In this document: positions 4,812 to 45,948 of the stretch, piece by piece
Layout of the letters: every line of letters begins with the position of its first letter
Numbering within the stretch: position 1 is the first letter of the stretch
Assembly (NCBI GenBank): GCA_966128725.1
Contig: CBHYLN010000002.1
Span: 23,711 to 87,710, forward strand
DNA from: an uncultured bacterium
GTDB taxonomy: Bacteria; Bacteroidota; Ignavibacteria; OLB7
Length of the DNA: 64,000 nucleotides
Reading direction: 5' to 3'
Translations under genes and position numbers: made by a program
The notes under the pieces: model-generated
What the model was told of the DNA's origin: nothing
Databases searched by the model: none
What the model saw: the letters and a program-made list of their open reading frames with translations, nothing else

Positions 4812-5232
4812 CGAGGTATCCATCTGTTCGTGTGTGAATGAATGCCGTCGGGATGATCCGTCGATAGGGCTGTATCGATACGGAAACCTGCGCCGTGGTT
4901 ATGTGGCCCGATACTGCATCCGGGAGGAAGCGGGCGCAAATTATCAAATCCGTATCAATCAATGTCCCGTTTCGGCAACAGCGTTTGCTGCATTGCGCTA
5001 CGAGCGTCGCGGTGACTACCGCATGCGCCGGGATTGGCGAGCGTTTGTTGCGCCGGCCGCTGCCGGGCCATGCGCCGCGCCTGGCGGATCGGGGCACGTT
5101 CTGTTTCTTGCGCGTTGACGAACGAATCCCCTACCTTGCAGCGCGTATCGCTTCGCAGGCTCCCGGATTCATGGACGCATCCGGGCGTTCGTGTAACTCC
5201 GGTTCCAGCGCATTTTAGACGATTCTCTACTC

Positions 5233-26012: not shown

Positions 26013-26348
26013 CTAGTGGCCGCCGGGGCGGCAGCAGGGGCTGAGATGCTTCTGCGCGTCGGGGTCGGCCTTGGTGCTGTTTGCATCGTAGCCGGCGGCG
26101 GCGATTGCGTTCTCGATGGTCGACAGCGTAAGCTTGCCGCTGTCGAACTTTACCACGGCGCTTTTGGCATCCACATCGATCTTTACTTTCCGCACGCCCT
26201 TCAGGCGCTTCAGTGCCGAGCCAATCGTGGCCTTGCACGATCCGCACTGGATTGTCGGGAGCGAAATGGTCGCTTCCTGGATGCCGCCGGCAAGTACCGG
26301 CATGGCAAGCATCAGCATCAACAACAACGGTGTAATGACACGCTTCAT
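26013..26348 (-). CDS. Periplasmic heavy-metal-associated (HMA, MerP/CopZ-like) domain protein
   Basis: ATG at 26348 gives MKRVITPLLLMLMLAMPVLAGG (signal peptide). A single HMA fold with LPTIQCGSCKATI (CxxC). Extra C-terminal ...SPCCRPGGH. Confidence 0.75.
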   Translation of the reverse strand: MKRVITPLLLMLMLAMPVLAGGIQEATISLPTIQCGSCKATIGSALKRLKGVRKVKIDVDAKSAVVKFDSGKLTLSTIENAIAAAGYDANSTKADPDAQKHLSPCCRPGGH

Positions 26349-26479: not shown

Positions 26480-28708
26480 TTACTCCGTCTCCTCACCGCC
26501 CAGTCGCAGCCTGATGCCCACGAACACCTCCCGTCCCTCAACAGGCCCCCACACCTGGCTTCCGTCCACATGGCCCTGGGCCACCTGGAATGCCAGCGGC
26601 ATTGTATCGCTCTGGCGGATGTCCAGCAAATTTGTGGCGCCCGCATACAATGCCACAATACCCAGCCATTGCTCGGCGCGGAAGTTCACAAGCAGATATG
26701 GGTCGGACTTCGTGACCGCCGCGGGGTTGGCACGAAGTGTCTGCGAGCCAACCCAACTTGCCCACGTCTCCGCCGTGAAGCCCGCAGCACGGTTGGCATA
26801 CATGGCCGTGGCGTCAACGTTCACGGTTGGGGCAAGCGGTACCGGCTGATAATCACCGCCGGATTGTTCGGTTGCGTAGTCGATTACCTGGCAGGCCAGC
26901 GAGCCGCTCCAGTGTTCGCCGAACGTGGGGCGCAACTGAATCTCGAACCCTCGCAGCCGTGTGCCAAGCGGATTGTTCTCGTACATAAGCGTGCCGGCGG
27001 CCAGGGAGTCGGGGTTGGGCATTGCCTTACCGATGATGCGTGTTGTATACGCATTTACGTTGAGATCGGCTCCGCCAGCGTCGCCTATCAGGAATCGATA
27101 GCTGGCGTCGGCATTCAACGTGATGGCACGTTCGTATCCGAACGACGGGTTCGAGCGCCATCGATAGATACCGTGAAGCACGCGATGATCCTCATCGAAC
27201 AATGCCTCGGCCTTGAAGCCCTGCCCTGCCATAAGGCGCATCGTGAACTGCCCCTCGGGCCGGAAGCGGATTGCGGCCCTGGGCGAGATCAGCAGTCCCG
27301 CCGAGGAGTGATGATCGGCGCGCAGCGCCGTCAGCAGGCTCCATGGGCCACCTAAGGCAAGTTCGCTCTGCACGTAGGCTGCCCACAACGTGTTCGAGTA
27401 TCCAATCCCCAGCGCGCTGTGTTCGGTCACTTGATCGTGGTGTGCCTGGATGCCTGCCACAAACGACGCTGCATCAAACGTGGTGGTGTAGGAAAGCTCG
27501 GCGTGTGCCGTACGTTGGTCGGCGTCCAGAAGGGTGGAACCGTAGTTGGCGGTGACGCCAACCAGTGATGCCGCGGCACGCAGTGCGATGTCGGACGATT
27601 CGTCCAGCGTCCGACCGATGGACACCAGCAGGTCGTAACGCGAAATATCGGAGCGTTCGTTATAGGTCTCGCCGCTCGTTCCTTCGCCGTGTGTTCCGGT
27701 CCGTTTGTCGTTGCCGACAAGGCCGGTGGCAATCAGCTCGGTGACATCGTCGAGCAACACGTTGGCCTTCAGCAGGCCGGAGAACCGTCGCCAGCCAGCC
27801 GAGGTCGGGGCGTCGGATGCGGAGTGATCGGAATACGATCCGAACGCCGCTATGCCGGCCGGACCGGCTACCCCGGTATACGAGGCGTTGATGTCGGCGG
27901 CGTCAGGCGCCCATGGCTCGCGGCCGGCCATTGTGGCGCTGAAGCCGAACTCCGGTATCTCGGTGGGCGGGCGTGTCTCCAGGTTTACAACGCCGGAAAC
28001 AGCCCGGTTGCCGTGCAGGGCGCTCGAGGCTCCCTCCACGATGCGGATTGTTTGAAGCGCCGTGGCCGGTATCATCGGCAGGCCGTACATGGTCGACAGG
28101 CCGGAGAACAGCGGCGCGCCATCGAGCGTCACGCTTACGTACGTTGGCTCCAGCCCGCGCAGCCGGGTGAAGCCGGCATTGTCCACCGCGCAAATCACAC
28201 GTGCGGCGGTACACGAACTGTAGCGCGCCAACGCATCGGCTGCCGTTGGAGCAAATGGCGCGTGCTGTTGCACCTCGTCGCGAATGGATTCCACGCGGCA
28301 GCAGGCGTCCTCTACCGAACGCGTGCGGCGCACCGCGCGCACTTCCACCTGTGGCGCCGTGGGCGCGGCTTCCTGCAATTCGATCAGCAGGTAATCGGAT
28401 GTGGGCTCCACCACCGTGCGTTGTGGCTCAAATCCCACGTGGCTGACCGCGATGCCAACGGCCGTGTTGAATGGCAGCGTGATCGAGAACGTGCCCGCCT
28501 GGTCGGTGATGGCTCCGTGTGGCAGGGCACTTGAATCGACAGCCGAGAATGCGCGGACCGTTGCGCCCGCCAGCGGATTCTGGTCGGCATCAAGAACCAG
28601 ACCGTTTATCGTTCTGGTTTGCGCGCGTATTGCGCCCGTGGCAATGCACAGGAACATTGCGGCAACGGCCGTTCGCACACCCGGGGTGGTAATTCTGAAG
28701 GATGACAT
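26480..28708 (-). CDS. TonB-dependent outer-membrane receptor with an N-terminal carboxypeptidase-regulatory-like domain (SusC/OprC-like)
   Basis: 742 aa. Signal peptide, INGLVLDADQNPLAGATVRA (CarbopepD_reg-like), plug domain, and a C-terminal beta-barrel ending in an aromatic residue. Confidence 0.85.
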   Translation of the reverse strand: MSSFRITTPGVRTAVAAMFLCIATGAIRAQTRTINGLVLDADQNPLAGATVRAFSAVDSSALPHGAITDQAGTFSITLPFNTAVGIAVSHVGFEPQRTVVEPTSDYLLIELQEAAPTAPQVEVRAVRRTRSVEDACCRVESIRDEVQQHAPFAPTAADALARYSSCTAARVICAVDNAGFTRLRGLEPTYVSVTLDGAPLFSGLSTMYGLPMIPATALQTIRIVEGASSALHGNRAVSGVVNLETRPPTEIPEFGFSATMAGREPWAPDAADINASYTGVAGPAGIAAFGSYSDHSASDAPTSAGWRRFSGLLKANVLLDDVTELIATGLVGNDKRTGTHGEGTSGETYNERSDISRYDLLVSIGRTLDESSDIALRAAASLVGVTANYGSTLLDADQRTAHAELSYTTTFDAASFVAGIQAHHDQVTEHSALGIGYSNTLWAAYVQSELALGGPWSLLTALRADHHSSAGLLISPRAAIRFRPEGQFTMRLMAGQGFKAEALFDEDHRVLHGIYRWRSNPSFGYERAITLNADASYRFLIGDAGGADLNVNAYTTRIIGKAMPNPDSLAAGTLMYENNPLGTRLRGFEIQLRPTFGEHWSGSLACQVIDYATEQSGGDYQPVPLAPTVNVDATAMYANRAAGFTAETWASWVGSQTLRANPAAVTKSDPYLLVNFRAEQWLGIVALYAGATNLLDIRQSDTMPLAFQVAQGHVDGSQVWGPVEGREVFVGIRLRLGGEETE

Positions 28709-28789
28709 GATGAACCTGCATTTGGAACATGGATAATGCTCCGCATGCGCATCGCTGCGCCTGCGGAAGGTGTGATGATCATGTTCCGA

Positions 28790-29248
28790 TCAACAGGGAG
28801 GGTGGTCCGGGATGGTTTGTGCGCCCGTTTGAAGCCGGGATGCCAGAGGCGCGGGATAGCTGTCGTGTGTGCCCTGCATGGTGCCGGTGGATGCGCCGCA
28901 CGGAGCGGCCAGTGCCACAAAGCAGCAGGCGCATACCCCGGTGCATCCGTCGGCGGCGGCATTGCCGTTGTGATGCGCCGGCCGCGAATCTCCGGGCCGT
29001 TGCGCCTTGCCCGCGACCGGCCCGCGATCCGCCTGATGCTGCCCGCATTCCGGCGTTTCGACGCCGCAATCGCAGTGATCATCACAGTCATCGGCCGGGC
29101 CGGAATGGCAGGGTGTTTCGGCAATGCAGCAGCCGGCGGCGCCCGCAGTTGTTGCCAGCGCCGACCCTCCGGTGGCCAATGCGACCAGCACCGCCAGAAG
29201 CAGAGCCAGGATGCGGCCGAGGCGCGAATATGTTGCCCGGGTATTCAT
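28790..29248 (-). CDS. Secreted Cys/His-rich small protein (hypothetical metal-binding), immediately upstream of the TonB receptor
   Basis: ATG at 29248 gives MNTRATYSRLGRILALLLAVLVALATGGSALA... then GCCIAETPCHSGPADDCDDHCDCGVETPECGQHQ...GCTGVCACCFVALAAPCG. GC3 ~75% supports coding. No recognisable family. Confidence 0.5.
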   Translation of the reverse strand: MNTRATYSRLGRILALLLAVLVALATGGSALATTAGAAGCCIAETPCHSGPADDCDDHCDCGVETPECGQHQADRGPVAGKAQRPGDSRPAHHNGNAAADGCTGVCACCFVALAAPCGASTGTMQGTHDSYPAPLASRLQTGAQTIPDHPPC

Positions 29249-29424
29249 AAAGCGCAAAAAGATACAACGGATCGGCAAATCCCGGCGTGTGCATTCTCCG
29301 GTGTGGCGCGTGCCCGCCTGTCGCGATGGCTGCGGTGCCGCCGTGCGCGCCGCGCGGTATCTCCGGGGCAATCCCGAACACATCCTGTTGTTTTCTATGG
29401 GCGCGCAATCGTACTTTAGGGCCC

Positions 29425-29886
29425 GTGACTATCAGGGCACTCATAACGCTTGGCACAATTTTCGGCCTGCTTGCGTTCGCGGTTGTACCGCTTCCGCTTG
29501 CCTGCTGCGAAGTTGCCGTTGCTGCACAATCCGCTGTGGTTGCGGCTTCGCCGGGGTGTTGTGGTGCGCCCAAGGCCGACTGCCATTGCGCGAAGTCGGT
29601 TCAACGGGCAGCCACGCCAATCCTTGGCAACGGCATATGTTGCATAGGCTCCGGCCCGCTTTCCTGCGACTGTCCCAGTGTTGCCTCTGCTTCGGTCGAC
29701 GCGCTTCCGCCACTCAACCTTGCCATCCAGCTTCCGGTTGTTGCCTTCAATGCCAACCGCATGCCATTGCCGGCTTTAACGATGGTTCACGGTTGGGGCC
29801 GCGTCTGCCGTGTTGGATCCTCGCCGCCACATCTTGCGGCCACCATGCACCGTACCTATCTCCGCATCGAGTCCTTGTTGATTTAG
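29425..29886 (+). CDS. Cys-rich small membrane-anchored protein (hypothetical), divergent from 28790-29248
   Basis: GTG at 29425 gives VTIRALITLGTIFGLLAFAVVPLPLACCEV...SPGCCGAPKADCHCAKS...GICCIGSGPLSCDCPS. It shares GCC...DCHC/HCDC/SCDC-type motifs with the divergent neighbour. Codon bias is weaker, so it is less certain. Confidence 0.3.
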   Translation: MTIRALITLGTIFGLLAFAVVPLPLACCEVAVAAQSAVVAASPGCCGAPKADCHCAKSVQRAATPILGNGICCIGSGPLSCDCPSVASASVDALPPLNLAIQLPVVAFNANRMPLPALTMVHGWGRVCRVGSSPPHLAATMHRTYLRIESLLI

Positions 29887-30160
29887 CACACCGCCACCTG
29901 GCGATGGCTGTTGATTCACCGAGCCCGACCATACGCATTGCGTTCGATGGCGCTCGGGAAGCCGTTGCCGTATCCCCAATAATTCCTGCTTCACATCGCG
30001 CGCGCTGAAGGCGTGTTGCTGGCCCGGCGTGAACCGCTTGCAACGTGTAGTGCCACGGCCGGATGCACGGCGCGCATGTGTCAACCGATGCCGTTCATCA
30101 ACGTGCCGGTACCGCTTCGGTGCGGTTGCCGGTTAGCCCATCATTTTTTGTTGGCGGAGC

Positions 30161-31537
30161 ATGTTGGCATACAAACGCTCATCATGGCGCTTCCGATTGT
30201 GCGCAGCGCTGGCATTGTGTCTCGCGCTGCTGGCCGTGCCGGCGTTGCGGGCGCAACCGCGGGCCGATACGCTTTGGCTTGGCCGGGACGATCTGCTGAA
30301 GATGCTGCGCGAGCGCGACCCGTTGTTTGCGCGCGGGCATGCTCTGCGCACACAGGCCGACGCCGAGCGAGCCCGATACGGAAGCTGGTTTCCGGGATAT
30401 CCGCAACTGGATTTCGAGCGCGTAACCGACGCCCCGTTTCATAACAACGGCGACGGGGGCTGGAGCCTTGGCCTGAATCAGGAGTTCGACATCTCGGGAC
30501 GCTTTGGCGCCCGTATGGCGGCCGCGCACGCAGCCGGGGGCGAACTGAGTGCCGACGCCGATCTTGCCGACGCGGATGCAGCCACGCGGGGGCAGGCACT
30601 GTTCGCGCGTTTGATTGTGGCCAACGAACGCATGCGTCTTACCGGGCTGTTGGCCGCAGCTGCCATGCGCCTGGATTCGCTTGCGGCGCGGTTGCTGGCT
30701 GCCGGTGAAATCTCCGAACTGGATCGCAATCTGGTGCGCATCCAGCGCGTTCAGGCCACGATCGAGGCCGAGCAGGCCACGGGGCGCATGGCGGCCGAAC
30801 AGGCCGATCTGCGACTGGCGTTCGGTATCGGCCGCGACACGGTGGTTGCGCCGAAACCGGGCTACGAGGATGTCGCGACCGCGTTGCTTGATTCGGCGGC
30901 CGCGTTCGAGGCAGGTGTTGCGCGCGGTGATGCTGATGTGCTTGCGCGCCGGCCCGAGTGGCGTGCGCTGCAGGCTCGTGCCCAGCGTTTGCGTGCCGAG
31001 CGCGATATCGCGGCTCGAAGCTGGGTGCCGAATGTCCGGCTTGGCCTGGCGCTGCACTCCGAAAGTATGGTGCTGCGTGGTGAGGATATCACCGGCAGCG
31101 AAGTTGTGCGCTCGGGATTTACGCGGCTGGCCTCAACCGACATGTTGCTCGGTGTGAACGTTGGCCTGGCGGTACCGCTGCCGATTAACGGGCTGTATCC
31201 TTCGGCTGGTCAGGAAGTGGCCGTTGCCGAGGGCGAACTGGCGCTGGTGGATGCCGACCGTGCCGTGTTGGTTGGGGGCATCCGGCGCGAGCTTGCACAT
31301 GCAACCGAACGCTTGCGCGCGGCCGCGCGTGGCCTGCGAGCGTATCAACAGGAGATAGTGCCGATTGTGGCGCGTAATCTGGAGCTGGCCGAGCGCGGGT
31401 ACGCGGCGGGTGAACTGAGCGCCTCGCAAGTGGTGCAACTGCAGGATCAATTGATGCGCACCGGCACGATGGCCATCGAACTGCGAATGGAACTGGAGCA
31501 GGCGGTCGCCGATGTGAATCGTGTAATGGGCAGATAG
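30161..31537 (+). CDS. czcC: TolC-family outer-membrane efflux protein (CzcC-like) of a heavy-metal RND system
   Basis: 458 aa. Signal peptide, two-repeat OEP architecture, followed by MFP and RND genes. Confidence 0.8.
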   Translation: MLAYKRSSWRFRLCAALALCLALLAVPALRAQPRADTLWLGRDDLLKMLRERDPLFARGHALRTQADAERARYGSWFPGYPQLDFERVTDAPFHNNGDGGWSLGLNQEFDISGRFGARMAAAHAAGGELSADADLADADAATRGQALFARLIVANERMRLTGLLAAAAMRLDSLAARLLAAGEISELDRNLVRIQRVQATIEAEQATGRMAAEQADLRLAFGIGRDTVVAPKPGYEDVATALLDSAAAFEAGVARGDADVLARRPEWRALQARAQRLRAERDIAARSWVPNVRLGLALHSESMVLRGEDITGSEVVRSGFTRLASTDMLLGVNVGLAVPLPINGLYPSAGQEVAVAEGELALVDADRAVLVGGIRRELAHATERLRAAARGLRAYQQEIVPIVARNLELAERGYAAGELSASQVVQLQDQLMRTGTMAIELRMELEQAVADVNRVMGR

Positions 31538-31555
31538 CGCAGAACTATACCGACT

Positions 31556-32254
31556 ATGGAACGAGAGATGATAGATCAACGGATCGATCCCAACCGGTCG
31601 CGGGGGCAGGCGCCTGTTATGGTGCCGTGGCTGTGCGCGCTGGTGTTGGTGGGGCTTGTGGCGAGCGTTCGTGATGTGTGGGCGCATGGCGGCGAGGATC
31701 ACGATCATCCCGCCGTTGCGGCTCCGTCGGCGGTTTCGGCGGGCACGCTCACCACGTTTGGCGTTTCGCCACGATACGAGCTGTTGATGAAGTACGAGGC
31801 GACCGAGGCCGATCACCCGGTAACGGTGCGACTGTTCCTCTGCGACTTCGCAACAAACCGTCCGGTGGAAGGCGCGTTATTCGTGTTTGCATCCAAGCCG
31901 GCGGGCGCGCGTTCGATCGAGGCCCCGCGCATGACGTCGCCGGGCGTATATCAGGCCACGATGACGTTTCCCAACGACACTGTCTACAGCCTGACCGCCA
32001 CGTTCTCGGTGGGCGATCAAAGCGAGACGATCGCGTTGCCGGCTGTGTACGCCGGCGAGGCGGCCGAGCACATTCTTGGCCAGCATACGGAATCCTCAGC
32101 CAACGGAGCCGGGCTGGGCGGCCTGTGGTGGCCAATCGCAATCGGCGCGGGTGCGCTTGTAGCCGTGGCGGTCTGGCTGGCGCGCCGCGCGCGAAAGCCG
32201 AGCGGCGGCAACAACGGACCAACGTTCAACAATCAACAGGGGAGCGGAGTATGA
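31556..32254 (+). CDS. Hypothetical membrane protein with an AHGGEDHDH His-rich motif, inserted between czcC and czcB
   Basis: N-terminal TM (WLCALVLVGLVASV) followed by AHGGEDHDHP, and a C-terminal TM (WWPIAIGAGALVAVAVWLARRARK). Its stop overlaps the czcB start (ATGA). Confidence 0.5.
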   Translation: MEREMIDQRIDPNRSRGQAPVMVPWLCALVLVGLVASVRDVWAHGGEDHDHPAVAAPSAVSAGTLTTFGVSPRYELLMKYEATEADHPVTVRLFLCDFATNRPVEGALFVFASKPAGARSIEAPRMTSPGVYQATMTFPNDTVYSLTATFSVGDQSETIALPAVYAGEAAEHILGQHTESSANGAGLGGLWWPIAIGAGALVAVAVWLARRARKPSGGNNGPTFNNQQGSGV

Positions 32255-33411
32255 ACATGCGTACATCACGATCGCGTCGTCCGCGTTGGGGGCGTACGCT
32301 GCTTGCCGGTGCGGTTGCCCTGTGCGTTGTGCTGGGCCGTTTGCTGGCGCATGGCGGCGAGGACCATGGAGACGCCGAACATGGTGCCGCCACGGCCAAC
32401 GGGCCGATGGCTACCACGATAAGCGTGGTCAAGGAGCAGCAGTTCGCGATTGGATTGCTCACCGAGCCGGCTGCCCGGCACCCGATGGGCGTTGGCATTA
32501 CCGCAACAGGGCGTGTTGTGCCGCGCACCGATGCGGTAGCCGATGTGATTCCCCCGATTGCCGGGCGTGTGGTGGGCGGTCGCCTGCCGCGCCTGGGGGA
32601 GCGTGTGCGGCGCGGAGAGGTTCTGTTCCGTGTACAGCAGGTGCTTGCACCAACCGAGCGCACGGCGCTGCGCCTGGAGCAGGTGAAAGCCAAGGCGGAA
32701 GTTGATGCGGCCCAGCGCGAGGTGGATCGATTGGTGCGTCTGGAGGGCGTTGTCGCGGCCAAGCAGTTGCTGGATGCCCGTGCCCGGCTGGCCTCGGCAC
32801 GCGAAGCAGCAACCGCCATCGCCGCCCAACTTCAGGGCGCGGGCACGGCGGTTGCCGTTGTTGCGCCAATCAGCGGAACCATCACCGCCGCCGACATCGC
32901 CGACGGTGAAATCCTTGATGCTTCGCGCCGGGCGTACAGCATCGCCAATCTCGACCACGTGTGGGTTGAAGCCGATGTGTTTGAAGCCGACCTTCCGAAA
33001 GTGCAGGGCGTGCGGGCCGTTGAGGTAACAACCCCCGCATATCCGGGCCGGACGTTCGCTGGCACGCTGTATCGCCTGGGCAGCGTTGTGGACCCCTCCA
33101 GCCGGGCGATCACCGTGCTGCTGGATGTCCGAAATCCCGACGAGCTGTTGAAGCTGAACATGAGCACGAGCGTTGTGCTGGCCGCTGGTGCGGCGCAGGA
33201 GGAGATCGCCATCCCGCAGAGCGCTCTGGTTCGGAGCGGCGCGCGTACCGTGGTGTTTGTGCATACGGCGCCCGAGGAGTTCCAGGTGCGCGACGTGCGA
33301 ACCACCGGCGCGGCTGCGGGCGGATACGTTGCGGCAAGCGGCATCGGCCTGGGCGAACGTGTTGTTGTCAGCGGCGCCCATCAGTTGAAGGCCGTCGCGG
33401 GCCTGCAATAG
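32251..33411 (+). CDS. czcB: Efflux RND periplasmic adaptor (membrane fusion protein, CzcB/CusB-like)
   Basis: ATG at 32251 (RBS GGAG). HlyD-like barrel-sandwich/beta-barrel blocks. The N-terminus (TM plus AHGGEDHGDAEHG) echoes the preceding ORF. Confidence 0.85.
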   Translation: MNMRTSRSRRPRWGRTLLAGAVALCVVLGRLLAHGGEDHGDAEHGAATANGPMATTISVVKEQQFAIGLLTEPAARHPMGVGITATGRVVPRTDAVADVIPPIAGRVVGGRLPRLGERVRRGEVLFRVQQVLAPTERTALRLEQVKAKAEVDAAQREVDRLVRLEGVVAAKQLLDARARLASAREAATAIAAQLQGAGTAVAVVAPISGTITAADIADGEILDASRRAYSIANLDHVWVEADVFEADLPKVQGVRAVEVTTPAYPGRTFAGTLYRLGSVVDPSSRAITVLLDVRNPDELLKLNMSTSVVLAAGAAQEEIAIPQSALVRSGARTVVFVHTAPEEFQVRDVRTTGAAAGGYVAASGIGLGERVVVSGAHQLKAVAGLQ

Positions 33412-33463
33412 GCGTTATCCATCCGATTTGATGATTGCTCCGATATAATGATCCGAGGAACTC

Positions 33464-36400
33464 GTGCTTAACTCGCTGATACTGTTCTCGCTTCGGAACC
33501 GTCCGCTTGTGCTGGCCGCGGCCGCGCTGTTGCTTGCCTACGGGGTGGTGGTGCTTACACGGCTTCCTGTGGATGTGCTGCCCGATCTGAACCGGCCAAC
33601 GGTTACCGTGATGACCGAAGCCCACGGCATGGCGCCCGAGGATGTGGAACTGTTGGTGTCGCGGCCCATCGAGTCCTCGATGAACGGAGCGTCGGGCGTG
33701 GAGCGGGTGCGGTCGGTATCGTCGATGGGGCTGTCCATCGTGTTTGTGGAGTTCGATTGGGGAAGTGATCTGTACCGCGATCGCCAGCTTGTGGCCGAGC
33801 GTCTGAGCGCTGTCCGCTCCAGCCTTCCCGCCGAGATCGTTCCGCAGCTTGGCCCGATTACTTCCGTGATGGGGCAGATCATGCTGGTGGGCCTCTCCGC
33901 CGACACCACCAGCCCGATGGCATTGCGGACGTTGGCCGATTTCACGGTGCGGCGCCGGCTGCTTACGATTCCGGGCGTGGCCCAGGTGACAACGATCGGC
34001 GGCGAGGTGAAGCAATTCCAAGTGGTTGCCAAGCCGTCGCAGTTGAAGGCGTTTGGTGTTTCGCTGGACGAACTGGAACAGGCCACGGCCCGTGCAAGCG
34101 CTGCCACCACCGGCGGTTACGTGGAGATCGGCGCGCAGGAGTATCCGATACGGAACCTGGCCCGCGCGGCTAACGCGGCCGACGTGGCGGCAACAGCGAT
34201 CCGCGTTTCCAACGGCGTTCCGGTAACCATCGGTCAGGTTGCCGATGTGCGCGAGGCTGCCGCACCCAAGCGCGGCGATGCCTCGGTAAACGCGCGCCCG
34301 GCTGTCATCCTAGCGGTGGAGAAGCAGCCCGACGCAAGCACGCTGGAGTTGTCGAAGCTGGTGGATTCGGCCTTGGCGGAGCTGAAGCCCAGTCTGCCGC
34401 GCGACGCACGAATCGACGCGCACGTGTTCCGGCAGGCGGATTTTATCGACAACGCAATCGGCAACGTGGAGGAAGCCCTTCGCGATGGTGCGATACTGGT
34501 TACGATTGTTCTGTTGCTGTTCCTGCTGAATGTGCGTACAACGGCGATCACGCTGACGGCAATACCACTTTCGATGGTGATCACCGCGCTGGTGTTCTGG
34601 CTGTTCGGCATCTCGATCAACACGATGACCCTTGGTGGGCTTGCTGTTGCCATCGGCGAGGTTGTGGACGATGCGATCGTTGATGTGGAGAATGTGTTCC
34701 GGCGACTTCGCGAGAACCGCGAAGCCGAACGCCCGCTGCCGGCGTTGACGGTTGTGTACCTGGCGTCGAGCGAGGTGCGGAATTCCATTGTGATCGCCAC
34801 GGTTCTGGTGGTGCTTGTGTTTGTACCGTTGTTCGCGTTGCAGGGGATGGAGGGGCGGATCTTCGCTCCGCTGGGCATTTCCTATGTGACGTCGATCGTG
34901 GCGTCGCTGCTGGTTTCGCTGACGGTTACGCCGGCGCTGGCGTCGTACCTGCTGCCGCGCTCGCGCGCGCTTGGCCGTGCCGAACGCGACAGTCCGCTTG
35001 TGCGCTGGTTGAAACAAATCGATCGCCAATTGCTGGAGCGCGTTCTTGCACGCCCCGTGCTGGTGATGGCTTCGGCGGCGCTCCTGTTCGCCGGAGCGGT
35101 TGCGATAATCCCGATGCTTGGCACCGAATTCCTCCCGCCCTTCAACGAGGGGTCGCTTACAATCAGCGTGGTGCAGCCGGCGGGCACATCGCTAAGCGAA
35201 TCCAACCGTATCGGCACGATGGTGGAGCGTCTGCTTGCCTCGGTGCCCGAGGTTGTTTCCGTTGCGCGCCGAACCGGCCGCGCCGAGTTGGATGAACATG
35301 CCGAGGGTGTGAACTCCAGCGACGTGGAGGTGCGCCTGCGGCCGGGCGATCGCGAGCAGGCGGCCGTGCTGGCCGATGTGCGCGCGCGTCTGGCGCTGGT
35401 GCCCGGCGTGGTGATCAACATCGGCCAACCGATCTCGCACCGGCTGGATCATCTCCTCTCCGGCGTGCGCGCGCAGATCGCCGTGAAGATTTTTGGCGAC
35501 GATCTTGGTGTGCTGCGGGCAAAGGCGGAGGACGTTCGCCGCGCGATGGCGCTGGTGCCCGGCGTGGTGGATCTTTCGGTGGAGCCGCAGGTGCTTCTGC
35601 CGCAAATCCCCATCGCCATCGATCGTGTTGCAGCCGCGCGATATGGAATGGCGCCCGGGGAGGTTGCCGAGCAACTGGAAACGGCACTCAGCGGCAGGCA
35701 GGTTGGTGCTGTTCTGGATGGGCAGCGAAGTTTTGCGCTGGTTGTTCGGTCGGATTCGGCGGCACGGCTTTCGCTGGACCAGATAAGCGCGTTGACCGTG
35801 GCAACCCCAACCGGGGCTCATGTGCCGGTACGTGAGCTGGCCCTGGTGGAATGGGGCAGCGGCCCAAACCAGATCCTGCACGAAAACGGGCAGCGCCGCA
35901 TCGTGGTGCAAGCCAATGTGGCCGGCCAGTCGTTGGGTGAAGTCATCTCGGGCATCAAGAGCTCCGTTGCCTCGCGTGTTGCGTTGCCCGAGGGGTACTT
36001 CATTACCTACGGTGGGCAGTTCGAGTCACAACAATCGGCGACACGCCTGTTGATGCTGCTGGCGGTGATGGCGGTGGTTGGGATGTTCGCCGTGTTGTAC
36101 GCGCATTTCCGGAGTGCGCGAATCGTGCTGCAGATTCTGCTGAACATACCTCTGGCGTTGGTTGGGGCGGTGGTGGCGATCACGCTTACCGATGCAACGA
36201 TATCGGTGGCAACCATTGTGGGCTTCATTACGCTTACGGGCATCGCGTCGCGCAATGGGATCATGATGATCTCGCACTATCTGCACCTGATGCGCGAGGA
36301 AGGCGAGGGGTTCACTCGCGAGATGATCGTCCGCGGTTCGCTGGAACGGCTGGTACCGGTGCTGATGACCGCACTGACCGCCGGGCTTGCCCTGATTCCG

Positions 36401-36646
36401 CTGGGATTGGCGCACGGTGCTCCGGGCAAGGAGATTCTGCATCCGGTTGCGATTGTGATCCTCGGTGGGCTGGTTTCCTCAACCCTGCTGGATATTTTCC
36501 TTACACCGGCCGTCTTCTGGCGCTTCGGGCGCACGGCCGCGCAGCAGTACTTCGAGCGCCGTGCCGCCAGCACGGTTACCGCTGTTGCCCCAACTGCAAA
36601 CGACGAACATCCCAATACCAATACATCTATCAGGAGTGAATCATGA
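33464..36646 (+). CDS. czcA: Heavy-metal efflux RND transporter, CzcA/CusA family
   Basis: 1060 aa, 12-TM RND architecture, N-terminus MLNSLILFSLRNRPLVLAAAALLLAYG typical of the HME-RND family. Confidence 0.95.
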   Translation: MLNSLILFSLRNRPLVLAAAALLLAYGVVVLTRLPVDVLPDLNRPTVTVMTEAHGMAPEDVELLVSRPIESSMNGASGVERVRSVSSMGLSIVFVEFDWGSDLYRDRQLVAERLSAVRSSLPAEIVPQLGPITSVMGQIMLVGLSADTTSPMALRTLADFTVRRRLLTIPGVAQVTTIGGEVKQFQVVAKPSQLKAFGVSLDELEQATARASAATTGGYVEIGAQEYPIRNLARAANAADVAATAIRVSNGVPVTIGQVADVREAAAPKRGDASVNARPAVILAVEKQPDASTLELSKLVDSALAELKPSLPRDARIDAHVFRQADFIDNAIGNVEEALRDGAILVTIVLLLFLLNVRTTAITLTAIPLSMVITALVFWLFGISINTMTLGGLAVAIGEVVDDAIVDVENVFRRLRENREAERPLPALTVVYLASSEVRNSIVIATVLVVLVFVPLFALQGMEGRIFAPLGISYVTSIVASLLVSLTVTPALASYLLPRSRALGRAERDSPLVRWLKQIDRQLLERVLARPVLVMASAALLFAGAVAIIPMLGTEFLPPFNEGSLTISVVQPAGTSLSESNRIGTMVERLLASVPEVVSVARRTGRAELDEHAEGVNSSDVEVRLRPGDREQAAVLADVRARLALVPGVVINIGQPISHRLDHLLSGVRAQIAVKIFGDDLGVLRAKAEDVRRAMALVPGVVDLSVEPQVLLPQIPIAIDRVAAARYGMAPGEVAEQLETALSGRQVGAVLDGQRSFALVVRSDSAARLSLDQISALTVATPTGAHVPVRELALVEWGSGPNQILHENGQRRIVVQANVAGQSLGEVISGIKSSVASRVALPEGYFITYGGQFESQQSATRLLMLLAVMAVVGMFAVLYAHFRSARIVLQILLNIPLALVGAVVAITLTDATISVATIVGFITLTGIASRNGIMMISHYLHLMREEGEGFTREMIVRGSLERLVPVLMTALTAGLALIPLGLAHGAPGKEILHPVAIVILGGLVSSTLLDIFLTPAVFWRFGRTAAQQYFERRAASTVTAVAPTANDEHPNTNTSIRSES

Positions 36647-36849
36647 ATCACGAAACAATTGTGATTGAGGGCATGAGCTGTGGTGGCTGTGTCAACAGTG
36701 TACGCAAGGCGCTGGAGCGCCTTGAGGTTAACGTGGTGGAGGTTACCATCGGAACGGCGACGGTTGAATACGATCCCGCCGCAACTTCACGCGAAACCCT
36801 GGTGGAAGCCATTGTAGATGCGGGCTTCGATGTGCCCGCGGTTGAATGA
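36643..36849 (+). CDS. copZ: Copper chaperone, CopZ-like (single HMA domain)
   Basis: 68 aa with IEGMSCGGCVNSV (MxCxxC). Overlaps the czcA stop (ATGA coupling). Confidence 0.85.
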   Translation: MNHETIVIEGMSCGGCVNSVRKALERLEVNVVEVTIGTATVEYDPAATSRETLVEAIVDAGFDVPAVE

Positions 36850-38021
36850 TGTGTACCAAAATGAACGAACAACAGAAGCGGGAGACAGGAATGATGATTG
36901 CATCCAGAAAGTGGTTCGGGTATGACGGGCGTACCTGCTGGCGCTGGTGCTGCACGGCCATGTGCCTGGCGATGACGGTCTTTACGGTAGTTGGTTGCGG
37001 CGGTGGTGATGCTCCGAAGTCGGGATCGGCCGACTCGGCGACCGCCACGCCCGCCGCCGATGGTGACCACCATCATGCCAACGCAGCGGAGGAAGCCGCC
37101 GTGCATACACATTCCACGGATATGACGGTGACCTCCGAGCCAGCCACAATCGCGCCGGGCGTGCCGACCACGATGACAATCAATATCGTGGAGAAGAATG
37201 GCGGTGCTCCCGTACAGGCGTTTGATACGGTGCACGAGAAGTTGCTGCATATGATTGTGGTGTCGGCGGACATGACATGGTTCAACCATGTGCATCCGGT
37301 GTATGCCGGCAATGGCCGATTCAGCATCCAGATTGCGCTGCCGAAGGCTGGCGAGTACTACATGTACGCGGATTACACACCGGCTGGCAAGGAGCACGAA
37401 ATCGCACAGCACAACTTTACGGTTACCGGAAGCGCTGGCTCCGCACCCAAGGAGGCCGTGGTGGATTCGCTTGGCGGACAGCCGTGGATAGTGAAGAGTG
37501 TTGGCTCGGCCCCGGAAGGGCACCCCGAACAGGCCACCGCCGCAACGTATCAGGTTGCGTTGATGCCCATGCCCGGCCACCTCGTGGCAGGCCAGGATGC
37601 CATGCTGCATTTTCAGGTGCGTGATGCGGCGGGCAAGCCGCTTGGTGATCTTGAACCGTACCTTGGCGCAATGGGCCATGCGGTGATTCTCTCGACCGAC
37701 GGCAAGGTGTATCTGCATACACATCCGATGGAGGACGGGATGGATCACGGTACCATGAAACATGGCGGTGGCGAACACGGGGCAATGAGCAAGGCTCCTC
37801 CCGTTGGCGGCGCCAATGCGGGGACAATGGGCCGGGGCTTCGCGGCCGGGGCCGAGCAGGACAATGCCCCAGCGGCAAAGAAACCTGCCGCCAAAGGCGC
37901 GGATGTTGTCTTCCACACGAATTTCCCACTGCCAGGGCGTTATCGTGTGTGGGGCCAGTTCCAACACCGCGGCAAGATTATTACCGTGACGTATCTGTTG
38001 GAAGTTGCGCCGGCGGCATAA
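36846..38021 (+). CDS. His/Met-rich periplasmic lipoprotein (putative Cu/Ag-binding), hypothetical
   Basis: Lipobox VVGCGG. Motifs HTHPMEDGMDHGTMKHGGGEHGAMS, WFNHVHPVY and GDHHHANAAEEAAVHTH. Translationally coupled to copZ (ATGA). The start is 36846 or Met16 (36891). Confidence 0.65.
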   Translation: MMCTKMNEQQKRETGMMIASRKWFGYDGRTCWRWCCTAMCLAMTVFTVVGCGGGDAPKSGSADSATATPAADGDHHHANAAEEAAVHTHSTDMTVTSEPATIAPGVPTTMTINIVEKNGGAPVQAFDTVHEKLLHMIVVSADMTWFNHVHPVYAGNGRFSIQIALPKAGEYYMYADYTPAGKEHEIAQHNFTVTGSAGSAPKEAVVDSLGGQPWIVKSVGSAPEGHPEQATAATYQVALMPMPGHLVAGQDAMLHFQVRDAAGKPLGDLEPYLGAMGHAVILSTDGKVYLHTHPMEDGMDHGTMKHGGGEHGAMSKAPPVGGANAGTMGRGFAAGAEQDNAPAAKKPAAKGADVVFHTNFPLPGRYRVWGQFQHRGKIITVTYLLEVAPAA

Positions 38022-42345: not shown

Positions 42346-43029
42346 GTGTCAGCGATGCGAAAAGCGGAACACTATACTCCAGATGCTGCCTCGGCTGCGC
42401 GGGATTCGCGTGATGAGGCTTTGTTCGCACGGTTTGTAGCCGGCGACGAGCGAGCATTCAAGGAGTTATACTCTCATTACGAGCGTCCGCTGATCCTTTA
42501 CTGCCGTCACATGCTCTCCACGGAACAGGAGAGCCAGGATGTATTCCAGGAAGTTTGGCTTCGTGTGATACGCATCCGGACACGCGGCGAACGAGTGGAG
42601 AGATTCCGCGCGATGCTCTTTACAATCGCTCGCAATGCGGCGATCAATCATCTTCGAAATCGTCAACACGCTCAGTACCCTGTCTCACTAAGCCAGGTGA
42701 ACATCGAGAGCAACCCCGCTCTCGCGACGAGCGAAAACTTCGACGAGATGGAAGATCTGGTTAATCGGGCGTTGAAGCGGCTTCCCGACTCTCAGCGTGA
42801 AGCGTTTGTGCTCCATTCGATGCTGGGATATACGTTCCAGGAGATTGCCGATATGCAGGGCGTGACGATGACCGGGGCGAAAACCCGCGCATTCCGAGCT
42901 CGCTGCTACCTGCGCACCCTATTGTCGAACTGGCTCGGGTTGGCCGAGGATGCCGATGACAATGTCACCGCGTCCAAGCCATCCGAACAATCACCCCAAT
43001 TTGAGTCAGAAGATCATGAAAACGGCTGA
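42346..43029 (+). CDS. RNA polymerase ECF-type sigma factor (sigma-70 regions 2 and 4)
   Basis: LYCRHMLSTEQESQDVFQEVWLRV (region 2) and EIADMQGVTMTGAKTRAFRARCYLR (region 4 HTH). The start is GTG 42346 or ATG 42355. Confidence 0.85.
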   Translation: MSAMRKAEHYTPDAASAARDSRDEALFARFVAGDERAFKELYSHYERPLILYCRHMLSTEQESQDVFQEVWLRVIRIRTRGERVERFRAMLFTIARNAAINHLRNRQHAQYPVSLSQVNIESNPALATSENFDEMEDLVNRALKRLPDSQREAFVLHSMLGYTFQEIADMQGVTMTGAKTRAFRARCYLRTLLSNWLGLAEDADDNVTASKPSEQSPQFESEDHENG

Positions 43030-43783
43030 CCTCATATCGTCCTTTCTGAACAATGAGATGACTCTGGAACAGGAGCGCCAGTTCCTGCTCTCGGTGGCCG
43101 CAAGCGATTCGCTTCGGTTATCGTTGAAATCTCAGTTCATGCTCGATCGGATTGTCTCCGATCAGGTGCTTCACGCACATGTGCCGGAGCCGCTCCGCGC
43201 ATCAATCTTTGCGCAGGCGGCTGCTGTGTCGGTGCCTGCGCATTCCATCTCCAGCAGTATTCCGTCGGAACCCGCGGCCGAATCGCGCATTGCGCGGTTG
43301 TTTGGTCGTGCCGCGATGATGGCGGTTCTTGTTGTTGGTGGGTACGCCGCGGGATATTTCTCGCAAGCCTCGCCCGAAGCCAGCGGTATGCCGGCGGCAA
43401 ATGCACCGGCAGTGACCACCCCCGCGCAATCGTTGCCGGCGGTGGCCCCACAGGTCGATCCGGCAACGTCGGCAGCGCCTGATGCCGAGCCTGTGCAAGC
43501 CAAGGCGGCACAGGCGGTCGAACCGGGTCATCGCGTCGCCAATCGCACCGCGACGGTGTCGCGGCCGGAGCATCGTGTGGATGCCGCGCCTGCGGCCGGT
43601 GTGCAGGCCAATACCGAGCCTGCAACCAATGCAACGGGCACCACGGTTAACGCCGACGGCAGTAATGGCGCCGAGCACAGCCCGCAGGGGAGTGCCCGGT
43701 TCCAGCAAACAATTACGAAGCCTTCCAAGTCGCCTGATCAGGGCTCCGTTACACAACAGCCAAGGAGCCCCCAGACTCCATGA
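43017..43783 (+). CDS. Putative anti-sigma factor (single TM, Pro/Ala-rich periplasmic tail)
   Basis: ATG at 43017 gives MKTADLISSFLNNEMTLEQERQFLL...; TM AAMMAVLVVGGYAAGYF. Overlaps the sigma factor gene by 13 nt and the next gene by 4 nt. Confidence 0.55.
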
Positions 43784-45948
43784 GCGATGGCCCCACGTTT
43801 TGGGGGTGGCGTTGGGAATCCGTGCTGAGTCGTCTCATTCTGCTTTGCGCGCTTGTAGTCTCACCCCTGGCTCAGTCGCTGGCGCAGCCTTTGTCTCCGG
43901 CACCCGACATCGATCGGGTGCCGGATAGTTCGTTGATAGGCCCTGCTGTTCGCCTCGGTATCGTGCCTATGCTGGGAATGGTGCAACAGCTTGCCTCGTT
44001 CGACCGCTGTACCGTTGGCGCATCGTGTGGCGCATACCAAGCCACTTCCCGCGGCGAGCTAGGCATCGCCGTTCGTCTGGAAATGCCGTTTCGTATCCAC
44101 CCCAACATTCTTGCAACTGCCTCGCTTGCCTACGCGCGTAATGCGCTGGAATTGCTTACCCCGATCGATTCAGCGCTGGAAGGGCGGCGCCCGGATAACA
44201 CGGCAACCTGGATTACCAAGCAAACCAGCCTGCGGGCTTCGATGCCGTCGTTTTCAGTAGGGGTTGGCCTGGCTTTTGAACCCGTCCGTGGGTTGCGGTT
44301 TGGGCTTAAGCAGAACGTGAGCATTGTCAACACGGCGCGCCCAACCGTGGAGCAAATGCTTCTAGGTCCGGAGGAGGCTGTGTTCGCGGCCACGGGAACC
44401 GATCGAGCGCCGTTGGAGAATGCGAACGAGCCGGTGTTCAGGGCAGTGGTGCCGCGTGGTGCGCTGTGGGCTGGTTGGCAATTGCCGATCGGTTCGCGCT
44501 TCTCGCTGCAGCCCTCCGCCGGCATGGAGTTTACCGAATCGTCGATTGCCTCGAATGTTTCATGGTATGAAGTCGGGTTCGGCGCAGGTCTTGGGCTGGT
44601 CATCGATCTTGGCCCAAAGCCTGTGGACGCGGTGCCAGTGCCGGTTATAGCCGAGATTGGGCGCCAGGCTTCGGACACCGTCCGTCCGATCCAGCCGGCC
44701 AGGGATACCGTGGTGCCGGTTGTACCACCGAAGTACATCCTGCGTGCCAGCGTTGTTGTCAAGGGTATCGACGCGAAAGGGAACGAATACGATGATCCGG
44801 TGATCGAAATTGAGGAATCGCCCTGGAGCGAATCGGTGCCGGTGTTGCCGTTCATCTTTTTCGACAGCGCCGACGCGACAATTCCATCGCGGTACGTCCA
44901 ACTCGACGAGTTCTCGCCCCCGGAGCGCTTTCATGTGGATTCGCTGGCGGCAATCTCGCCTTTGAACATTCATTGGCAGATGTTGAACGTTGTTGGCGAG
45001 CAGTTGCGGGCCAACCCACGGCAACGACTGACGATTGCCGGCACAACCGCGGGCGATGAGCAGGGGGGCGATGCAACCCTTGGTGCCAGGCGGGCGCAGG
45101 CGGTGCAGCGTTACCTGATCGACCGGTGGCGGATCGATCCAAAACGTATAACCGTGACTGTGCTTGCACATCCTTCGTCTCCATCAAATGAATTGACCCG
45201 CGAAGGCCGCGCCGAAAACCGACGTGTGGAGCTGCGATTTGATGTTGGTGAACTGAGCCGCCCAATCCTGATTCGCCGGTTGGCCACCGTTGCGTCGCCG
45301 CCAGCGGTACAGTTCTATCAGAACATCGAGGCGGACACGGACATCGTTTCATCGTATGTGGTGGTTGAGCAGGGAGGCAAGGAACTGCTGCGCTTCGTTG
45401 GCAGCAACGACACCGGGCCGAAACCGCAGCAGAAGTTCTGGTCACTTGGCGACATGCGCGTCAACCGCGACCTGACGCCCATTCGTTATCGCTCGGTTAT
45501 TCGCGATGCGGTTGGGCAGGAGGTGGTGACCGAGGGTTCGTTTCGTGTGCTGGAACGCGCAACCCGTCGCCCAGAAGAACGCAAGGCGGAGCTGATCGAG
45601 TTCAACATTGTTGGCTTCGAGTTCAATTCCGCGGAACTGCGTCCGCAGCATTTTGTGCAACTGGAGGAGGTCGCCAAGGTTCTGACCTCGGGTGCGGATG
45701 TGTCGATTACCGGCTTTACCGATCGTACGGGTGATCCGGGTGGCAATGTGCAGTTGTCGCAGGCGCGCGCGCGCGCGGTGCTCGGGGCCTTGCGAACGAT
45801 GCGCGAACGCGCTGGTGAATCGATGCCGACCAAGCTCTCGGTGGTGGGATTGGGAAGCGATCAGCAGGCATATGATAACGATTTGCCGGAGGGGCGCCTG
45901 CTATCGCGCATGGTTCGTGTAACCGTGGCCCGTCAGTCGCGACGATAG
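43780..45948 (+). CDS. OmpA-family protein with two C-terminal OmpA-like peptidoglycan-binding domains and a large N-terminal (beta-barrel-like) region
   Basis: Two OmpA-like blocks (TIAGTTAGDEQGGDATLGARRAQAVQRYLI, and ITGFTDRTGDPGGNVQLSQARARAV ...R). Co-transcribed with the sigma/anti-sigma genes. Confidence 0.7.
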   Translation: MSDGPTFWGWRWESVLSRLILLCALVVSPLAQSLAQPLSPAPDIDRVPDSSLIGPAVRLGIVPMLGMVQQLASFDRCTVGASCGAYQATSRGELGIAVRLEMPFRIHPNILATASLAYARNALELLTPIDSALEGRRPDNTATWITKQTSLRASMPSFSVGVGLAFEPVRGLRFGLKQNVSIVNTARPTVEQMLLGPEEAVFAATGTDRAPLENANEPVFRAVVPRGALWAGWQLPIGSRFSLQPSAGMEFTESSIASNVSWYEVGFGAGLGLVIDLGPKPVDAVPVPVIAEIGRQASDTVRPIQPARDTVVPVVPPKYILRASVVVKGIDAKGNEYDDPVIEIEESPWSESVPVLPFIFFDSADATIPSRYVQLDEFSPPERFHVDSLAAISPLNIHWQMLNVVGEQLRANPRQRLTIAGTTAGDEQGGDATLGARRAQAVQRYLIDRWRIDPKRITVTVLAHPSSPSNELTREGRAENRRVELRFDVGELSRPILIRRLATVASPPAVQFYQNIEADTDIVSSYVVVEQGGKELLRFVGSNDTGPKPQQKFWSLGDMRVNRDLTPIRYRSVIRDAVGQEVVTEGSFRVLERATRRPEERKAELIEFNIVGFEFNSAELRPQHFVQLEEVAKVLTSGADVSITGFTDRTGDPGGNVQLSQARARAVLGALRTMRERAGESMPTKLSVVGLGSDQQAYDNDLPEGRLLSRMVRVTVARQSRR

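Follow-up and report, generated by a model that had tools for sequence, protein, structure and literature searches.

To our knowledge, metal sensing by nascent peptides was described between 2021 and 2025 and is represented by two experimental systems, CruR and CutF, both of them from Proteobacteria. Here we compare with these systems a locus of an uncultured bacterium, contained in a stretch of 64,000 nucleotides (nt) of contig CBHYLN010000002.1 (hereafter the window; coordinates are those of this whole stretch unless another locus is named), in which two small open reading frames (ORFs) face away from each other between a metal uptake and a metal efflux operon. ORF A (28790-29248, minus strand, 152 amino acids (aa)) is a candidate leader peptide of the uptake operon; for the czc efflux operon, ORF B (29425-29886, plus strand, 153 aa, GTG start) is a candidate leader peptide or a candidate sensor. 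We give an even chance to the reading, made by analogy with the described systems, that both are cis-acting metal-sensing leader peptides (regulatory upstream ORFs) of the CruR/CutF type.

CruR (Bp2923) of Bordetella pertussis, a protein of the DUF2946 family (PF11162), is encoded by an upstream ORF that heads an operon with a TonB-dependent transporter (PMC9426467). Arrest at its RAPP motif prevents Rho-dependent termination and copper, sensed via a CXXC motif, relieves this arrest; the CXXC-45-RAPP spacing is kept within 1-2 residues and an insertion of +5 breaks regulation, while a rut site has been placed in the C>G region of cruR, which is followed by a spacer of 162 nt (PMC9426467). CutF of Rhodobacter capsulatus is exported co-translationally, and periplasmic copper at its CXXXC motif leads to a stall at a C-terminal proline motif, and this stall opens a stem-loop by which cutO's ribosome-binding site is hidden, so that CutF turns on a detoxification gene in cis (PMC9973294; bioRxiv 10.1101/2025.02.05.636593). 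A set of 5,334 CutF-like proteins, mainly from Pseudomonadota and Bacteroidota and having motifs of the Cys, the His or a mixed type, has been collected under a definition that includes PP within the last 15 residues and a length <150, the commonest downstream gene being that of OEP/CzcC and the second that of a TonB-like protein (PMC9973294). CzcI of Cupriavidus metallidurans was placed in a CutF-like cluster and has no C-terminal proline motif (PMC9973294); it is described as a periplasmic protein that quenches CzcCBA activity (PMC10127602).

Two small ORFs at the head of two metal operons

ORF A lies directly upstream of a gene encoding a TonB-dependent receptor with CarboxypepD_reg, Plug and barrel domains (26480-28708, minus strand), the last gene of this uptake operon encoding a MerP/CopZ-like HMA protein with a signal peptide (26013-26348, minus strand). 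ORF B precedes an efflux operon that extends from czcC to orf391 (30161-38021, plus strand). A first-pass annotation of the window had described two divergent ORFs of about 150 aa at these coordinates, next to a TonB receptor, a periplasmic HMA protein and czcCBA-copZ, and all of this was found as described; its statement that the pair is upstream of the TonB receptor is right for A and not for B, which heads the czc operon.

Related loci were collected in three ways. A scan of a genome collection with the receptor led to locus L001, which has a 59% identical receptor and a divergent A/B pair followed by czcC; a full HMMER search with B gave the relatives P0004 and P0008 (loci L004 and L003, respectively) together with four low-complexity false positives (P0003, P0005-P0007); and a hand-made DNA pattern for the tail of B, which matched all known copies and otherwise nothing in the window, recovered L006 and L008 from a metagenome collection, as well as chance matches (L005, L007). 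B is the first gene before czcC-orf232-czcB-czcA in all six loci (the window, L001, L004, L003, L006 and L008), which represent five independent lineages. The contigs of L004 and L003 carry B, with genes for an OEP, an orf232 homologue and an adaptor after it and an A-like ORF, in divergent orientation, upstream of it. Four lineages have A divergent from B, with positional orthologues in L001, L004, L008 and L003. In the window, L001 and L004 the receptor gene comes directly downstream of A, and A precedes the receptor on every contig that is long enough to show it. In L006 a B orthologue (2224-2721 of that locus, plus strand) and czc are present with neither A nor a receptor nearby, flavin reductase and ABC substrate-binding protein genes being found upstream, so that the two small ORFs are to be assigned to separate operons, each to the one that it precedes. 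The pump genes are most similar to Bacteroidota genes. Word-indexed searches of proteins, for which A, B and an alignment of A served as queries, returned self or a 99% twin only, and tblastn of A and B against a plasmid collection gave no match.

Other frames are also open in this region (several overlapping ORFs of 160-290 codons), so that, in GC-rich DNA, ORF length alone is weak evidence for genes. We therefore weighed the view that one or both ORFs are chance open frames and that the region is only a promoter or leader. The many overlapping long ORFs speak in its favour, as do a GC content at third codon positions (GC3) below that of the neighbouring genes, especially for B (70% for ORF A, which had been given as about 75% in the first-pass annotation, and 62% for ORF B, against 71-75%), and the apparent lack of a protein-database entry for either ORF from this contig. 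They are outweighed by in-frame conservation over four to five lineages, with synonymous changes at invariant residues. Comparing L001 with L004, the ratio of nonsynonymous to synonymous change (pN/pS) in the proposed frames is 0.53 for ORF A and 0.29 for ORF B, the receptor giving 0.10, and it is about 1.0-1.4 for most other frames of ORF A; a ratio <1 is found only in the proposed frame and in the codon-aligned antisense frame, which has 0.55 in the case of ORF A but is interrupted by a stop. Window B reaches 72 bits against a hidden Markov model (HMM) built from the other B copies, with shuffles at <=6.4 bits. An origin by chance is thus effectively refuted, and we would now give it hardly any credence. 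The conservation in related genomes (A in four lineages, B in five) and the purifying selection on which the first-pass annotation had staked the reality of the two frames are both seen, and on this sequence evidence we take ORFs A and B to be real, conserved genes that are translated in frame.

The start of ORF A is uncertain: it may be the ATG at 29248 or a TTG at 29278, the latter giving MPIRCI.., to be compared with MPNGRCI.. in L001 and L004. The protein collection includes CzcA and CzcC of this contig and searches with A and B found no entry from it, so that the gene caller apparently skipped or mis-framed both ORFs. The small ORFs diverge fast, with 34-38% identity where the adjacent receptor has 59%, and the case for an A family is one of positional orthology and shared anatomy, window A scoring 3.9-6.7 bits against an HMM from the other A copies, above all 300 shuffles. 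ORFs A and B have no detectable relationship with each other (BLASTP E=2.3; cross-family HMM scores near zero). The first-pass annotation had seen a GCC...CHC/HCDC motif common to the pair and proposed looking for it in related genomes; as A and B are dissimilar and the motif is missing from several orthologues, one B copy even being His-rich (L006), this motif belongs to the copy in the window and not to a family.

Anatomy and database comparisons of the A and B families

Every A and B copy has one strong N-terminal hydrophobic segment (Kyte-Doolittle 1.97-2.75), and the segment and the Cys strings quoted in the first-pass annotation are present in both ORFs, with 13 Cys in ORF A and 11 in ORF B. 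A lipoprotein signal was rejected after inspection of the residues preceding the first Cys.

The A copies are 152-163 aa long. In the window the hydrophobic export segment ILALLLAVLVALAT (29171-29212, minus strand, Kyte-Doolittle 2.43), then GGSALA|TT, is followed by a first Cys/His/Asp cluster GCCIAETPCHSGPADDCDDHCDCGVETPECG (29042-29134, minus strand), which is variable, the orthologues having other Cys clusters here. Further on comes a single CxxC motif, CACC (28922-28933, minus strand), the only CxxC in each copy (CACC, CACC, CACC, CCWC and CSCC, one per copy). The four complete copies all have exactly 40 residues between CxxC and the terminal PPC; this spacer is hardly alignable, and compensating indels are needed. 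The end of the peptide, DHPPC with its TGA stop (28790-28807, minus strand), is a candidate ribosome-arrest motif and is conserved in 4/4 copies as D[H/R]PPC-TGA-TC, synonymous codon changes included. The pN/pS of A is lowest in the export segment (0.09 for N-terminal codons 1-28, L001 against L004). Among the six-frame ORFs of the 64-kb window, ORF A alone has an export segment and Cys/His content together with PP in the last 15 residues, a set of features equivalent to the CutF-like rules.

The B copies are 148-165 aa long. Their export segment (29437-29502, plus strand, in the window) has a conserved P-x-P-L-x at its end, and P-x-P-L-x-CC closes it in most copies. Next comes a Cys-rich region of variable sequence, which extends from CC(E) to CDC, the last CxC (29503-29673, plus strand), and the gap between CxC and PP amounts to 50, 49, 49, 50 and 50 residues of poorly conserved sequence in the five Cys-bearing copies. 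The B of L006 has CC in place of CxC and a His-rich/Asp run HGHDDDHAHDAGDHHSHGDDHHDHG instead of the Cys clusters, the ruler and the tail being kept. In all six copies G-S-S-P-P is followed by exactly 18 residues before the stop; within this conserved tail (GSSPPHLAATMHRTYLRIESLLI plus stop, 29815-29886, plus strand) little or no variation is seen at A, H, T, Y/F, L and the final LLI. The tail is free of Cys, is the best-conserved part of B and has its lowest pN/pS (0.13), with different codons at invariant residues. The invariant C-terminal residues of both A and B are in fact encoded by different synonymous codons in different lineages, and it is therefore the peptide that is under selection.

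TC follows the TGA stop of A in 4/4 copies and the stop of B is TAG in 5/6; these stop-codon preferences may be linked to release-factor choice at regulated termination.

Structure prediction, which had been suggested as a check in the first-pass annotation, returned a confident N-terminal helix and low confidence for the rest, all AF2 (AlphaFold) runs being single-sequence, with no alignment supplied. In A the sole confident element is helix 4-41, inside which the export segment lies, and the predicted local distance difference test score (pLDDT) is <50 for most residues after it; in B it is <50 for residues 22-153. A conserved length with an unconserved sequence, as seen between the Cys motif and the C-terminus of A and B, is a molecular-ruler pattern, which is unusual for a folded protein.

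A second hydrophobic segment occurs in B in some lineages and is missing from L001 and L004; a second transmembrane segment, with the tail in the cytoplasm, was rejected on these grounds. This bears on the idea that A and B could be membrane-anchored signalling proteins, anti-sigma-like or partners of an unlinked regulator, which would sense metal in the periplasm and signal via a conserved tail. A single N-terminal membrane segment and, in B, a short conserved C-terminal tail are what such proteins might have, but besides the non-conservation of the segment that would make the tail cytoplasmic, no zf-HC2 or other anti-sigma domain is found in A or B and no sigma factor or regulator is adjacent. 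There is no transcription factor gene within the 12-kb metal island (26.0-38.0 kb) or its flanks, and the nearest extracytoplasmic function (ECF) sigma factor gene (42346-43029, plus strand) has partners of its own, being followed by ORFs 42950-43783 and 43780-45948; this ECF sigma unit (42346-45948, plus strand) is separate from the metal island. We consider a signalling role of this kind improbable. The first-pass annotation had listed sensors among its suggestions: this is the part of it that we favour, the evidence pointing to cis-acting nascent peptides and not to conventional sensor proteins.

Neither window A nor window B has a Pfam, NCBIfam or PDB match. With profiles against PDB, A gave nothing at E<=1 and B a chance-level match to a serum lectin (E=0.07). 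No Pfam or NCBIfam profile match of A or B was found to metallothionein, Csp, CopC, CusF, HMA, DUF305 or YtkA, which agrees with the earlier statement that metallothioneins, Csp, CopC and CusF are not resembled. DUF6660, considered as a possible relative, is not mentioned in the literature searched and gave no Pfam match, and was not used. The new metal-binding family proposed in the first-pass annotation holds good only to the extent that Pfam, NCBIfam and PDB do not recognise it, while its architecture and context are those of the described CutF-like class (PMC9973294).

Genes for the maturation of methanobactin or other ribosomally synthesised and post-translationally modified peptides (RiPPs), such as MbnB/C, radical SAM or YcaO, are found neither in the island nor in related loci, where a receptor, an HMA protein, RND pump parts and housekeeping genes are the neighbours. 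The first-pass annotation had also suggested a metallophore-related protein, that is, A and/or B as precursors of secreted Cys-rich metallophores or RiPPs that would be re-imported by the TonB receptor. The Cys-rich composition, the leader-like N-terminus and the adjacent receptor invite this idea, against which stand the lack of modification, cyclisation or dedicated export genes in the island and related loci, a size of about 150 aa with a Sec-type hydrophobic segment, a core sequence that is not conserved, and the association of B with an efflux pump and not with the receptor, without which it occurs in L006. The suggestion is not supported, and we regard it as very improbable.

CruR is the best match for A. 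Both are the first ORF before a TonB gene, with an export signal, a single CXXC and a Pro-Pro at the extreme C-terminus, and in both the 3' region has C>G and a long spacer follows. A differs by its D[H/R]PPC-stop (RAPP+3 in CruR), by a spacing of 40 residues (45 in CruR), by extra Cys clusters, by a spacer of 81-105 nt, by falling outside the PF11162 model and by its other lineage, with Bacteroidota-like neighbours. For the CutF-like proteins, both of their commonest contexts are present at this locus, OEP/CzcC for B and TonB for A. By their rules A fits in its PP, signal and neighbour and exceeds the length with 152-163 aa; B, at 148-165 aa, fits in its signal and neighbour. As judged from sequence alone, B has in common with them Sec targeting of the nascent peptide, a metal motif made of Cys/His and a Pro motif in the C-terminal part, and His-only variants such as the B of L006 exist among them too; unlike them, B has its PP 19-20 residues from the end with an 18-residue tail, lengths that were put at 153-165 aa for this comparison and so exceed the limit of <150, and spacers of 162-311 nt where most CutF-like genes have <100 nt. 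CzcI and CzcI2, compared by position and description only, are like B small exported proteins directly upstream of czcC, the czcI gene being transcribed together with czcCBA; B is distinguished by its conserved SPP-plus-tail module. Finally, the classical arrest peptides SecM, VemP, MifM, TnaC and ApdA/ApdP (per bioRxiv 10.1101/2025.02.05.636593) resemble A and B in a conserved C-terminal part of about 17-23 residues, the length of the upper tunnel, in their place just upstream of the regulated gene, in export and in the coupling, for A and B a proposed one, of arrest or its release to events outside the ribosome; they differ from them in motif sequence, where there is no similarity, and in the ligand sensing, proposed here to occur by a metal-binding Cys motif. 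A and B are best read, by these analogies, as sequence-unrelated or very divergent variants of the CutF/CruR functional kind.

A possible leader-peptide mechanism

The spacer after A is 81, 95, 94 or 105 nt long and that after B 274, 260, 256, 311, 271 or 162 nt, with no conservation of sequence in either case. All A and B copies have a C:G of about 2:1 over their last ~100 nt, as have the starts of the spacers, compared with about 1:1 or G>C in the neighbouring genes. The A-to-receptor spacer of the window (28709-28789, minus strand, 81 nt) is C-rich and G-poor and can form a nested hairpin (fold z=-2.3 against shuffles), in the outer stem of which the last codons of A pair with a GCAGG that precedes the receptor AUG by about 9 nt. 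An analogous long-range stem, from the stop-codon region of A to bases just before the receptor AUG, is found in L001 and L004, and as a regulatory element this hairpin is suggestive only. No relevant Rfam match was found in scans of the window and of this region.

The divergent intergenic region (29249-29424) has a conserved GTTG-N21-TAnnTTnG-GGCCC-GTG block (29387-29427) directly 5' of the start codon of B, which is also present in L001 (about 1942-1985 of that locus, minus strand). We take it to resemble the -33/-7 promoter of the Bacteroidota type, and as a promoter it would make the mRNA of B leaderless or near-leaderless. No conserved palindrome or operator was found in the region, nor a sigma-70 consensus, and a promoter/terminator consensus scan gave nothing.

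By analogy with CruR and CutF we infer ribosome arrest, action in cis, an involvement of Rho, the direction of the response and the identity of the metal, in the following way. A and B would each be translated first from their own operon mRNA, and the N-terminal hydrophobic segment would target the nascent chain to the Sec translocon. With a ribosome at the PPC-stop of A, the CxxC, 43 residues before the stop, would have just emerged from the tunnel, its distance to the peptidyl-transferase centre being 42-43 residues, in a CruR-like manner; with a ribosome at the end of B, 23 conserved residues would fill the upper tunnel and the CxC, 70 residues back, would be across the translocon, which resembles the transmembrane sensing proposed for CutF. 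Metal binding, or an effect of metal on disulfide formation, might then alter pausing of the ribosome at the C-terminal motif. The paused ribosome could mask the leader's 3' end, which is C-rich and G-poor and in this Rho-loading-like, and so block Rho, or it could open the RNA of the spacer, and the level of pausing would set the expression of the downstream operon. Metal would in this way shut off the TonB receptor and HMA genes through A (uptake) and turn on czcC-orf232-czcB-czcA-copZ through B (efflux).

The CxxC motifs, the HMA/CopZ-like partners and the pump segment AIGEVVDDAIVDVEN lead us to guess that the sensed metal is Cu(I)/Ag(I), a guess which rests on that segment being, as we assume, a CusA-type signature; in some lineages the metal may be a different one, as the His-rich B found in L006 suggests.

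B-type peptides could represent a new, non-RAPP class of arrest or sensor peptide which would read periplasmic metal across the translocon and which would form, together with A, a reciprocal factor-free switch, a proposal that we make tentatively and hold to be rather doubtful. The module of B would, from its sequence, begin with the export segment and continue with a loop rich in Cys or His, a ruler of 50 residues, SPP and a tail of invariant length (18 residues, H-x-T-[YF]-L-...-LLI-stop). If the proposal is true, one divergent promoter region would serve both importer and exporter, and a separate nascent-peptide metal sensor would gate each of them.

The explanation that competes most directly with leader peptides is a role in trans for A and B, as Cys-rich metal-binding proteins that are stable and either exported or anchored in the membrane. 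As a CzcI-like protein in the periplasm, B would modulate CzcCBA or feed it, A would pass metal to or from the TonB receptor and the HMA protein or buffer metal, and the fixed spacing would come from a metal site made of the last Cys motif and C-terminal residues. Such proteins would have the export segments and dense Cys/His clusters that are observed in A and B, and B is in the position of CzcI, which quenches CzcCBA as a periplasmic protein (PMC10127602); the two roles are moreover compatible, as CzcI itself is within the CutF-like clusters (PMC9973294). They would not be expected to lack a predicted fold past the N-terminal helix, to have Cys clusters that are positionally unconserved and exchangeable for His, to conserve a spacer in length and not in sequence, or, in the case of B, to be best conserved in a Cys-free part. 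Nor would a role in trans account for the C>G skew and the long spacers, and exported CutF has been reported as rapidly degraded (PMC9973294). A role in trans is in our estimate possible, on the unlikely side.

Several observations weigh against A and B being leader peptides of the CruR/CutF type. Some of them come from the comparison with proteins acting in trans: the invariant C-terminal Cys of A, with the CxxC, could be metal ligands of a folded site, which would explain the fixed spacing, CzcI has the same position as B and is reported to act in the periplasm (PMC10127602), and the low AF2 confidence is weak evidence, the models being single-sequence. Others concern the families themselves. 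The homology of the A copies is weak, composition-corrected BLASTP among them being not significant, and three to five independent lineages only are available, all on short metagenomic contigs. At the level of RNA, the stem between A and the receptor is not seen in L008 and no consensus structure is derivable for this spacer; the B-to-czcC spacer (29887-30160, plus strand, 274 nt) folds no better than shuffles and is not alignable between loci, where CutF acts via a stem-loop shielding the ribosome-binding site.

The remaining points concern the known families. No match to DUF2946 (PF11162) at E<=10 was obtained by hmmscan against Pfam-A with window A, window B, three further A sequences (L001 with both starts, and a cut L003) and two further B sequences. 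Among the DUF2946 features, an N-terminal export signal is predicted in A and B (from hydrophobicity and the AF2 helix), CXXC is present in A and not in B, which has CxC (CC in L006), and the position at the head of a metal operon with a long spacer is shared by A (81-105 nt) and B (162-311 nt); the RAPP about 3 residues before the end is missing, A ending in D[H/R]PPC and B having SSPP 18 residues before the stop, and the Cys-to-Pro spacing, fixed within each family (A 40; B 49-50), is different from the 45 of DUF2946. The PP of B, at 19-20 residues from the end, is likewise outside the CutF-like definition. Given the lack of a PF11162 match and the differing motifs, spacings and lengths, we do not file A and B as DUF2946 members.

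A leader-like ORF was also observed in locus L011 (2647-3009 of that locus, from plasmid NZ_CP076063.1 of Cupriavidus sp. EM10; 120 aa, annotated as 'hypothetical protein'), with a signal, a His-rich run and the C-terminal SGPPLRPPHAPA, 93 nt upstream of TolC-orf186-HlyD-RND genes. Its similarity to B amounts to 9 bits only and is located in the export segment, and it has only two weak relatives in the plasmid collection. The DUF2946 model of Pfam misses it as well, so that leaders of this kind are poorly captured by profiles.

Neighbouring genes and implications

The efflux operon comprises, all on the plus strand, czcC (30161-31537), orf232 (31556-32254), czcB (32251-33411), czcA, encoding a pump of the CusA/CzcA family (33464-36646), copZ, encoding a CopZ-like protein (36643-36849), and the His/Met-rich orf391 (36846-38021). 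A protein of the orf232 type (about 190-245 aa) is encoded between czcC and czcB in every related locus, and such proteins occur also with pumps on Hymenobacter and Cupriavidus plasmids (besides the window, L003 2812-3549, L004 3543-4223, L006 about 4430-5112, L009 3060-3689 and L011 4305-4865). With a signal anchor, an HGGEDH(D/G) motif, a weakly YtkA-like middle, a C-terminal membrane segment and no Pfam match, orf232 looks like an undescribed fourth component of this subtype of resistance-nodulation-division (RND) pump. The czcB adaptor carries HGGEDHGDAEHG after its membrane anchor, a motif in common with orf232, and the overlap of the czcB start with the orf232 stop (ATGA) suggests translational coupling. 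The product of orf391 (391 aa), a putative lipoprotein with, for example, HTHPMEDGMDHGTMKHGGGEHG, has no Pfam or NCBIfam match. In the receptor, residues about 130-180 (about 28230-28320 of the window, minus strand) contain RTRSVEDACCRVESIRDEVQQHAPFAP...YSSCT.AR..C with a vicinal Cys pair; this stretch, near the plug and unusually conserved, is identical in the window and in the 59%-identical receptors of L001 and L004.

What is new at this locus is the sequence families, which current profiles do not detect; the kind of switch is already known. If the leader-peptide reading is true, it would extend the principle of nascent-peptide metal sensing to profile-invisible families in an uncultured lineage with Bacteroidota-like pump genes, and uptake and efflux would stand side by side, each under one of two unrelated leaders, in an island that lacks a transcription factor. 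The spacer lengths of 40 and of 50+18 are testable predictions of where the metal motifs would be with respect to the tunnel and the translocon. As leaders of this kind are easily missed by gene callers and by Pfam, 'orphan' metal operons that appear to have no regulator may often carry one.

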